The position numbers and the translations under genes are program-made. A DNA stretch of 64,000 nucleotides from Centroscyllium fabricii (taxonomy: Eukaryota): NCBI GenBank assembly GCA_051313645.2, contig JBNRSN020000010.1:158286001-158350000 (forward strand). Reading direction: 5' to 3'. The notes beneath the pieces are model-generated. The model did not search any database and had not been told where the DNA came from. It saw only the letters and a list, made by a program, of their open reading frames with translations. This document shows, piece by piece, positions 49,869-62,614 of the stretch. Position 1 is the stretch's first letter. Each line of letters starts with the position of its first letter.

Positions 49869-52800
49869 TGTGGTAATACAGAACAGCTTCTAGCTTGGAG
49901 TTTTTGCTTACATCACTTCTGGGGACCTATGAACTTTGTATGATGTCACTTCCTGTAATTAGCCCAGTATAAATACTGGGCTACTCAGTATGATTTAGTA
50001 AGAGGCATGGTGAAGACCTCTTTTGTATGTATCACAGTTATAAGTTGATTAAAGCTTACCTTAAGTTCATATCATGTAAGTTTCATTCTTACAACAATTT
50101 AATCAACTTTGCAAAACTTCTCACTCAACTCGAACTTTTGGACAAAACTCGGAGCTGAGGATCCAGGGAAATCACCAGCATGGAGAACCTCCTTAGACCG
50201 ACTCATCTTGATTTGGACCCAAACGCCTCAGCAGCTGATAAAGTATGGAAACACTGGTATCACGCTTTCGAAAATTTTCTTGTGTATTGTGAAGCTGATG
50301 ATGACATGAAGCTCAAGTTACTTATCAACTATGTCACCCCAAGGGTATATGAATGTGTGGATCATTGGACTAATTTTGATGAGGCAATCCGGACACTTCA
50401 GAGACTATATACTAAGACACCTAATGAGGTCTATGCTAGACATCTACTAGCTACAGCCCGACAAGGGCCAGAGGAATCAATTGATAAATTCCTTCATGAG
50501 CTTCGCAGGCTTAGCATGAATTGTAACTTTCAGGCGGCCTCAGCTGAGCTGTACCGTGAAGAGATGATTCGTGATGCCTTCATCTGCGGGCTTGCCTCCC
50601 CATTTATTCACCAGCGTCTACTCGAAAGTAAGACACTGGAACTACAAAAAGCTTATGACATGGCTTGTTCTCTGGATTTGGCAAAAAAAAATGCAGACCT
50701 TTATGAGGTACCCAGACCTCGAACTGCTGCTTTAACCACAACCAGACAAATTAAGCGGCCACAGGTGAACTCTATTAGGGAGGACTTTTATCCTGATGAT
50801 CAATCTGATGACTTCAGTGATGAAGAAGATGCTGACCCCACTCTGGCAGCCTCTTGGCGATCTAAGAAATGCTTCTTTTGTGGTGATGAGTTTCATCCTA
50901 GGAAATTCTGCCCTGCTCGCAATGCGATTTGCAGTCATTGTGACAAAAAGGGTCATTTTGCGAAGGTTTGCCTATCACGAGCCTCTACGAGGGCTTATCG
51001 AGCTCAGTCCTATCGAACTGCCCCAATTAGGGCCTATCAAGATATTCCGGCTAAGACTTATCATGCTTCCTCTCGGGGTTTTTCCCGAAGAAGCACACCT
51101 AGAGTTTCAGCCACTCTTTGTGCAACAACATCAATTACAGCTGCTTGTCCTCCAAATCTATTCCATGCTGCTGTGAAGGCATCAATTGCTGGACATACTT
51201 TAGATGCCTTAATTGACTCAGGCAGCTCTGATAGTTTTATTAGGGAACAGGTTGTTACAAAGTCAAAGCTACATGTTTTCCCATCCAACCAGGCAATTGC
51301 GATGGCTCAGTCGTCGCTCAACACCAGAATCTCCGGCTTTTGTATTGTTGAAATGTCACTTAATGGCCACAGGTATCCCTCCACCCGGCTTTCGGTGCTC
51401 AAGGACCTGTGTAGTGATCTTATCTTAGGGCTGGACTTTCAAAAGCAGCATAAGACGCTCACTATTGAGTTCGGCGGATCTAAACCCGGACTCACTATTT
51501 CTAATATCCTGCCTCAATTACCGTTCTGTGCGTTGTCAGCGGCTTCGCTGGATGAACCCTCACTATTTACCAGTATTCCTCCTCGATGCAAACCAATTAT
51601 AACAAAATCACGACGTTTCAGTCAGGAAGACCAGTCCTTTATTGCGACTGAAATTTCTCGGCTTTTGGCAGAGGGTATCATCGAGCCTTGTTCATCGCCA
51701 TGGCGGGCCCAAGTTGTTATTGTTAAGAACCCTCTACAGCCTCACAAGAAACGGCTGTGCATTGACTCACAGACCATCAATCAATATACGGACTTGGACG
51801 CCTACCCATTGCCGCGCATAGATGATATGGTTAATAGATTGGCTGAGTACACGGTGTTCTCAACGTATGATCTGAAAAGCGCCTATCATCAAGTACCTTT
51901 GAAAGTCTCAGACAAGCAGTATACGGCCTTTGAGGCCAATGGACGGCTGTACCAGTTTCGTCGCCTCCCGTTTGGGGTCACTAATGGAGTGGCTGTCTTC
52001 CAGCGGGCAATGGATGACTTAGTCAAGCAGGAAAACTTAAAGGATACTTTTCCTTATCTAGACAATATTACTGTTGCAGGTCGTGATCAACAGGAACACG
52101 ACGCCAATCTCCAACGATTTCGGGATGCACTCCAGCACCGTAATTTAACATTGAATGCGTCTAAATCCATTGAGTCGCAACCAACCATCAACATCCTTGG
52201 CTATTGTGTGGGCAATGGCATAATTAAACCGGACCCTGAAAGGCTTCGCCCGCTCCAAGAGCTCCCGCCACCTAAGAATCCAGCCTCCTTGCGTCGGGCC
52301 CTCGGCCTCTTTGCGTATTATGCTAAATGGATTCCTAACTTCTCGGACAGAATCCAACCCCTACTGAAGGCCAGAACATTTCCATTAGACACAGCGGCTG
52401 TTACAGCCTTTAATCTTCTAAAACAACAGTTGGAGAAAGCGGCCCTTCACTCTATTGATGAGAGTCTGCCCTTCGTCGTCGAATGTGATGCCTCAGAAGT
52501 GCCGATCTCGGCTACTCTGAATCAGGAAGGTCGTCCGGTGGCATTTTTGTCCAGGACCTTTCAGGGTGCCGAACTACATTATCCTCCGGTGGAGAAAGAA
52601 GCTACAGCCATTATAGAGGCAGTACGGAAATGGAACCATTTCCTAGCTCGGCAACACTTTACGTTGATAACAGACCAGCGATCGGTCGCTTTTATGCTTG
52701 ATAATTGGAAACGAACCAAAATTAAAAATAATAAGATCCAGCTTTGGCGGATGGAGTTGGCCTCTTTCGGTTACACCATCCACTACCGACCTGGCAAGGA

Positions 52801-62000: not shown

Positions 62001-62614
62001 GTTTACCATTCCCATCACAGCACCAACAGCTGCCTGTGCCGTCTTCAATGAGCAAAGGAATACTATGTAAGCTGCTCAGTGACCTGCTGCACATGCTCAG
62101 TATTTCCTGAGCGCTTCAGATCACGTGCTCCAAAGCTGCAGAATAAGTTTGACAAAAGTCGCCAAGGAGTTCCTGAAGCAGTGCAACGTGGTGAGCTCCC
62201 AGTTATTATTGTTATGTATTTCTACCATTTTTGAGTCCCATTCCCGATGCTCACAGTGTCTCCTTTGATCTCTGAACGAGTGGCAGTTCCCATTCACATC
62301 ATCTCACTCCTGATAATGTTTTCAACCTGTGATAAACATGTATATCACTGTATATAGCTAATCACCATGTAACCCATACCTGTAATGTATTCCACTGTGA
62401 TACCTGGAACATACCTGGCTCCGCCCACGACTCCTCCCCCGCTGGAGGAGGTATATAAGTGACTGCCCCCATCCCCCGTGTCATTCTAGGGGACAGTCAG
62501 CTTGCTGGTGTGCAATCTTACTGTAGTGAATAAAAGCCTGATTGTTCTAATCTACTACACGACTCCGTGGACGTAATTGAAGGTAACAATTTTATTCACT
62601 ACTGAAAATGGATA

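Follow-up and report, generated by a model that had tools for sequence, protein, structure and literature searches.

How does a Ty3/Gypsy element begin reverse transcription when the primer-site position beside its 5′ LTR complements the LTR itself? The question is raised by a 64,000-nt stretch of a Centroscyllium fabricii contig (the window, meaning that entire stretch), in which three Ty3/Gypsy elements (E1, E2 and E3) each carry an LTR-derived pairing at that position. Their assignment was confirmed by LTRs of the TG...CA type, target-site duplications (TSD), polypurine tracts and the Pol order protease, reverse transcriptase (RT), RNase H (RH), integrase; the RT is nearest to that of Ty3 (top PDB match Ty3 Gag-Pol, E 3.8e-59). 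E1 is 4.5 kb long and its gag-pol frame of 1319 residues contains neither a chromodomain nor a Tf2-type SH3 domain. The E2 LTRs show 4 differences over 229 nt. E3 extends past the window, its 3′ LTR lying about 3.6 kb beyond the window end (100% identical over 261 bp, with the 5-bp TSD CAACC). E1 and E2 share 59% identity in RT-RH and fall in separate sub-branches of the RT-RH tree. The features of the window are the following.

49864..49868, + strand: E1 target-site duplication AACAC, second copy at 54386-54390
49869..50096, + strand: E1 5′ LTR, TG...CA, 228 bp, identical to the E1 3′ LTR
49968..49975, + strand: E1 TATA box, 86 nt before the arm 3′ end; start site predicted near 49997 from the spacing
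50042..50053, + strand: E1 arm (candidate self-primer), 3′ end ATTAAA
50054..50081, + strand: E1 second helix, from the first base past the arm, with alternative partners at 50062-50066 or 50076-50081 (stem scan and fold)
50098..50109, + strand: E1 primer-binding-site position, arm complement, one A past the LTR
50180..54139, + strand: E1 gag-pol in a single frame: Gag with CCHC knuckles, protease, RT, RNase H, integrase
54146..54157, + strand: E1 polypurine tract
54158..54385, + strand: E1 3′ LTR, with the arm and without its complement
55865..56093, + strand: E2 5′ LTR remnant, first ~70 nt absent
55955..55962, + strand: E2 weak TATA-like site (6/8), 81 nt before the arm end
56023..56035, + strand: E2 arm, including AATAAA
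56036..56050, + strand: E2 second helix, immediately 3′ of the arm
56095..56107, + strand: E2 primer-binding-site position
56118..60231, + strand: E2 gag-pol region with frameshifts
60251..60550, + strand: E2 3′ LTR, preceded by a polypurine tract
62328..62588, + strand: E3 5′ LTR, 261 bp, TSD CAACC at 62323-62327
62452..62459, + strand: E3 TATA box, 84 nt before the arm end
62523..62535, + strand: E3 arm, including AATAAA
62590..62602, + strand: E3 primer-binding-site position
62615..63492, no strand assigned: TA-flanked insertion with terminal inverted repeats, splitting the start of E3 gag

The surroundings are rich in other repeats. E1 is inserted in a very high-copy LINE-like sequence (49500-49863 and 54391-54600), whose uninterrupted target is frequent in the contigs. 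TA-flanked inverted-repeat insertions of a MITE-like family are found at 4715, 10145, 22089 and 62615-63492, the last being the one in the E3 gag start, and two GC-rich minisatellite arrays with units of ~30 nt occupy 17209-17541 and 45443-45590. No tRNA gene was found within the window. A perfect 11-bp inverted repeat is centred on the E1 TATA box (49960-49983), and in E3-type LTRs another inverted repeat lies between TATA and arm (62461-62499), its loop containing the predicted start site; this one could form in the 3′ RNA copy only.

In all three elements the terminal CA of the 5′ LTR is followed by one A and then by a 12–13-nt complement of an upstream LTR segment, the arm, which ends in AWTAAA(A). 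The pairs 50098-50109/50042-50053 (12 bp), 56095-56107/56023-56035 (13 bp) and 62590-62602/62523-62535 (13 bp) are exact reverse complements, and none can be extended at either side. A match of the observed length was reached in 0/5000 dinucleotide shuffles per LTR (means 4.2–5.1, maxima 10–12; the E3 shuffle used an over-long 378-nt LTR and is conservative). A first-pass annotation had proposed these three pairs, located one A past the 5′ LTR and with no TGG, and both its coordinates and its description of the junction proved exact in E1, E2 and E3. None of the sites starts with TGG, a difference from the tRNA-primed Gypsy clades (CsRn1, Mag, errantiviruses), whose primer-binding site starts with that triplet and complements a tRNA 3′ end.

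Relatives were sampled blind to the primer site. A degenerate gag-start pattern gave 61,168 matches in the 7.2-Gb genome of the same organism (0 for the reversed control), a lower bound because the pattern misses the E2 family. The own-genome sample of 53 elements consisted of the first 30 matches, 20 more chosen for gag diversity among the 100 listed, and the three window elements. A metagenome sample came from a profile scan of contigs, of which the best 80 of 308 loci were taken: 51 had no gag start, and among the 29 that did, one (L070) was dropped for having too little upstream DNA, leaving 28. Pairing at 11 or more of 13 positions was present in 48/53 own-genome elements and 20/28 metagenome loci, compared with 4/1620 shuffled upstream regions. 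The own-genome misses are L050, L172 (10/13), L174, L188 (a 13-bp duplex out of register) and L189; those of the metagenome are L066 and L117 (decayed copies of pairing families), L082, L095 (10 perfect pairs), L108, L113, L123 and L127. Named protein relatives, identified by protein comparison only, come from a sea anemone, Trichinella, Trichuris, Palaemon and two lepidopterans, and no match was found in the viral contigs searched.

The 70 pairing elements among these 81 were reduced to 36 clusters of <70% identity (19 own-genome, 17 metagenome), a set that tests covariation and not prevalence, and whose members are related and not independent events, although changes occur in both deep sub-branches. 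Site positions 1–11 are Watson-Crick paired in 35–36 of the 36 clusters; positions 4–9 each show between two and four types of pair, and the clusters contain 22 different 11-mers. Each arm fits its own site: at least 12/13 pairs were found in 33/36 own combinations vs 48/1260 cross pairs, and 0/20,000 permutations reached the observed sum. The earlier proposal that pairing is kept while the sequences differ is borne out by these compensatory changes across the clade, and the loss of pairing in related families that would have spoken against it did not appear. The pairing is confirmed as a real, clade-wide feature.

The same covariation bears on whether the primer could be a fragment of a host tRNA or another small RNA, the LTR match being secondary. 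Half-tRNA priming is known in some copia lineages, according to the consulted part of PMC6317226. A single tRNA end cannot account for 22 different 11-mers that each match their own LTR, and a host primer would need an AAA end. No tRNA origin was seen in the direct comparison either, the longest match being 4 nt in all 19 own-genome clusters; this comparison is weak, as its 63 family-search hits (30 taken as loci) comprised 9 distinct host tRNAs of two types (Lys, Cys), too few for a full test. Priming by a host RNA is barely credible on this evidence.

Genome-wide counts at arm position 8, a transversion site, gave (arm/site) 36,038 matches for G/C, 554 for G/A, 72,408 for T/A and 771 for T/C, so that 108,446/109,771 (98.8%) are paired, in copies that are clonal. 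When 20 G-arm/A-site copies were compared with their own 3′ LTR, six differed from it, five shared the base, two could not be read and seven lacked a 3′ LTR within range; most of the mismatched class seems to have arisen by decay after insertion. Mismatched copies were also considered as traces of templated copying or strand-transfer recombination, a candidate set aside since no mechanism is readable from these 20.

Tf1, Tf2, Tj1 and the Tf1/sushi chromoviruses are described in PMC4600332, bioRxiv 10.1101/2022.12.06.519325 and PMC3601003 as elements that prime themselves with the 5′ end of their RNA, and an RNase H/RT cut yielding the primer is described for Tf1/Tf2 in PMC5341516. As in those elements, the site by the 5′ LTR complements the element's own LTR, there is an 11-pair core, an extra helix stands beside the presumed cut in 22/36 clusters, and Pol has the order protease, RT, RNase H, integrase. 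The position and polarity of the pairing fit a primer site and favour Tf1-like self-priming, one of three options left by the first-pass annotation next to masking of the polyA signal and 5′–3′ end pairing. Self-priming in one form or another is very probable.

The present clade is nevertheless set apart from the Tf1/sushi group. A chromodomain or a Tf2-type SH3 was detected in 0/36 clade proteins at E 0.01, and in a quick IQ-TREE of RT-RH (49 rows, midpoint root, long branches flagged, no named reference rows such as Tf1 or sushi-ichi) the 33 clade rows separate from the same-genome controls described below on a branch with SH-aLRT 100. These data suggest a non-chromoviral Ty3/Gypsy lineage, separate from the sushi-type chromoviruses of the same genome. 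It is a lineage that probably works like Tf1 self-priming, outside the Tf1/sushi group.

A name for the clade was also sought. Its members presumably resemble Cigr-1, likened here by description only (about 4.3 kb, short LTRs, one frame, a marine invertebrate range). A Cigr-1 clade is recorded in Ciona and molluscs in the portion consulted of PMC6238403, which makes no mention of a primer-binding site or primer, and the matching motif was absent from those of its supplements that were searched. Saci-2, an early lead for the name, has a Gag of the CCCH type according to PMC2582038, and E1 has no CCCH. The consulted parts of PMC6238403, PMC2774666 and PMC2582038 give no basis for naming the clade.

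The LTR terminal CA, one base and the complement follow one another in 35/36 clusters, the arm 3′ end pairing with the first base of the site. Sites begin with TTT in the 36 clusters except in one register-shifted copy; the anchored search required TT, and unanchored searches recovered the same sites. The arm always ends in AAA, and the next two bases are GC or AC in 32/36 clusters, while the loop measures 21–70 nt. Folding gave a mean arm–site pair probability of 0.87. Directly 3′ of the arm (from +1), 22/36 clusters can form a second helix of 4 bp or more (shuffled mean 10.5, maximum 21 in 2000); the other 14 show it weakly or not at all, and it is weak in the E3 fold. We liken it to the extra duplexes of the Tf1 'pretzel', as described in the part consulted of bioRxiv 10.1101/2022.12.06.519325, with one helix here. 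The E2 U5 contains a second, 9-nt complement of the E2 arm (56067-56075), present in both LTRs and in many family copies, which folds into a hairpin of its own in the predicted fold.

Two features of the arm point in opposite directions as to where the RNA begins. An AG or TG occupies positions −11/−10 from the junction in 35/36 clusters, the trinucleotides at this candidate purine-start site being TAG in 16, AAG in 9, TTG in 5, CAG in 3 and GAG in 1 of the 36. The Tf1 primer is 11 nt long, and the dinucleotide looks like a start site for a primer of that length. Together with the 11 near-invariantly paired positions, it argues for an exact Tf1 layout, in which a TATA-less initiator would start the RNA from a purine 11 (or 10) nt upstream of the junction, giving an 11-nt self-primer, and the upstream TATA would drive another RNA or be a later addition. 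The pairing itself, however, spans 11–15 nt across the clade and reaches 13–15 nt, above expectation. It fades gradually from position 12 to ~15, staying above the cross-family expectation up to position 14 in the own genome and 16 in the metagenome clusters; own-genome clusters are paired at position 12 in 18/19 cases vs 8.9 expected, and at position 14 in 13 vs 6.2. Pairing beyond position 11 in excess of expectation implies that RNA upstream of an 11-mer is needed. Splicing within the LTR as a source of the AG was considered and rejected: the ~45 nt would be too short for a usual intron, and, a weaker point, no joint was seen in the contigs.

The TATA spacing was compared with controls of the same genome. 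A genome search with the Tf2-type SH3 family provided 20 regions: seven had no LTR pair, five had a pair of another or unclear element, one contained an unrelated self-complementary element (L307), and seven were sushi-like (L293, L295, L296, L298, L303, L304 and L306). The sushi-like controls have an 11-nt site matching their own LTR, perfectly in three 5′ LTRs, and a chromodomain was present in 4/4 tested. In 7/7, in at least one LTR each, a TATA box lies at −41/−42 from the arm end, that is, 30 nt before the first base of the 11-nt arm, the Tf1 layout. Their loop is 123–221 nt, vs 21–70 nt in the clade. L307 (689-3867, reverse strand of the locus) has 653-bp LTRs that are 99.7% identical and ~2.5 kb apart, an 11-nt self-complementary site and no TATA at −41; it is perhaps non-autonomous.

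In the clade, unlike in Tf1/sushi elements, the best TATA match of 17/19 own-genome clusters lies at −76 to −105 from the arm end; that of E2 is weaker, at −81/−83, and one cluster has none. Among 72 further loci of the clade, 44 have a TATA at −80 to −91 and 28 are without a good match, and no TATA was found near −41 in any of the 19 clusters or 72 loci. The complete TATA–arm–site pattern has 7,724 matches in the genome (control, 0). With the vertebrate-type spacing seen in the controls, the clade RNA would start 35–65 nt upstream of the arm, which is probably internal to R. The self-primer of Tf1/sushi elements is the RNA 5′ end in the literature; here the TATA spacing argues against such an arrangement and the AG at −11 for it. 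Among the metagenome members no consistent TATA position was seen, and with five of their clusters showing a TATA-like site between −35 and −45, some of their hosts may contain the Tf1 layout. Tf2, furthermore, has alternative start sites of which only one supports priming, according to the part consulted of PMC5341516. For the clade as a whole, and with the strong TATA of 17/19 own-genome clusters so far upstream, we regard the exact Tf1 layout as doubtful.

The overlap of the arm with the polyA signal, another difference from Tf1/sushi elements along with the 12–15-bp duplex, brings in a further reading: that the duplex has no role beyond masking the 5′ polyA signal (or packaging) and that something else primes. 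Arms were scored with standard lists of polyA hexamer variants. The canonical hexamer AATAAA/ATTAAA lies inside the arm in 18/19 own-genome clusters, and the pairing partner exists only after the 5′ LTR. Retroviruses with a signal in R must occlude it, in HIV-1 possibly by a stem-loop, and their hexamer, likewise in R at both ends, is paired at the 5′ end (PMC12789967, part consulted). Retroviruses, though, keep their tRNA primer site, while the masking partner here would be the primer-site position itself, outside the LTR. Only 8/17 metagenome clusters have the hexamer inside the arm. The remaining nine comprise three that look decayed and six with full pairing and no canonical hexamer in the arm; in three clusters a canonical hexamer is free in the loop. 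A duplex ending one base from the LTR CA is unneeded for masking, and no other primer site is left, an ATG often following within ~20 nt past the primer-site position. Masking alone, one of the options of the first-pass annotation, is weakened by these six of 17 metagenome clusters and is improbable; the best reading of the masking is a by-product of self-priming.

The third of those options, pairing of the site with the arm of the 3′ LTR, could also lead to priming: once cut, the full-length RNA would itself supply the priming 3′ end, with the leader that precedes the arm providing the strand-transfer homology. The 3′ LTR has the same arm and upstream bases under any start-site scenario, and this reading would explain the retained 35–65-nt leader and an arm ending at the polyA signal. 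The 5′ arm, however, is only 21–70 nt away from the site and, at a pair probability of 0.87, would fold with it long before the 3′ end is made; the literature examined offers no precedent. We consider 3′-end priming quite improbable.

The reading that we prefer, with a probability of about 0.5, is internal-arm self-priming, in which the primer would be cut from within the transcript and not from its first bases. Transcription would start ~35–65 nt upstream of the arm in this genome, unlike in Tf1. The nascent RNA would fold and bring the arm's 5′ copy onto the primer-site position, the same duplex hiding the 5′ polyA signal while the partnerless 3′ copy stays free. The element's RT/RNase H would then cut at the helix junction, between AAA and GC, as for Tf1, whose self-primer cut was reportedly the subject of work by Levin in 1996. 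The cut would leave a 3′ OH one base from the LTR end, from which RT would copy U5 back to the cut and then jump to the RNA 3′ end, using for this strand jump the 15–25 nt between polyA signal and polyA site. The primer would be a capped fragment of roughly 45–75 nt, or a trimmed one. Start site, cut and priming are all inferred here, and a long capped primer is an unexplained problem for plus-strand termination.

Self-priming has likewise been predicted from sequence outside Tf1 itself, for plant Tcn1 and the TAR, Houba and Osr-1 copia elements (PMC6317226). TAR is Ty1/copia and Tcn1 chromoviral, unlike the present clade, and an overlap with the polyA signal is not described in the part consulted of that paper. 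Full-text searches, covering largely open-access papers, gave no description of a non-chromoviral animal Gypsy lineage with such pairing, nor of an arm overlapping the polyA signal. While self-priming by a complement of the own LTR is already known, an internal, polyA-signal-bound primer arm in a non-chromoviral lineage would be new. In its most complete form the proposal is that animal Gypsy elements evolved self-priming a second time, independently, with a cut inside R at the polyA-signal end and a single duplex that blocks 5′ polyadenylation and then primes, either through a long capped RNA or through the 3′ end of the genome itself; we advance it tentatively, at a little under even odds.

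Tf1/sushi is so far the one lineage in which self-priming has been worked out, with predictions for a few groups of plants, and the lineage described here is unrelated to the chromoviruses. In the Centroscyllium fabricii genome both layouts, the putative internal arm and the Tf1 type, occur side by side. If the mechanism is true, a primer internal to the transcript and tied to the polyA signal would represent a new cutting geometry for RT/RNase H as well as an answer to the problem of a polyA signal at both RNA ends. Such an element would escape silencing by tRNA fragments at the primer site and be mis-scored by annotation tools built to require a tRNA site. The protein relatives in cnidarians, nematodes, crustaceans and insects, and the more than 100,000 junction matches counted in this genome, raise the possibility that animals use tRNA-independent priming as a main route.
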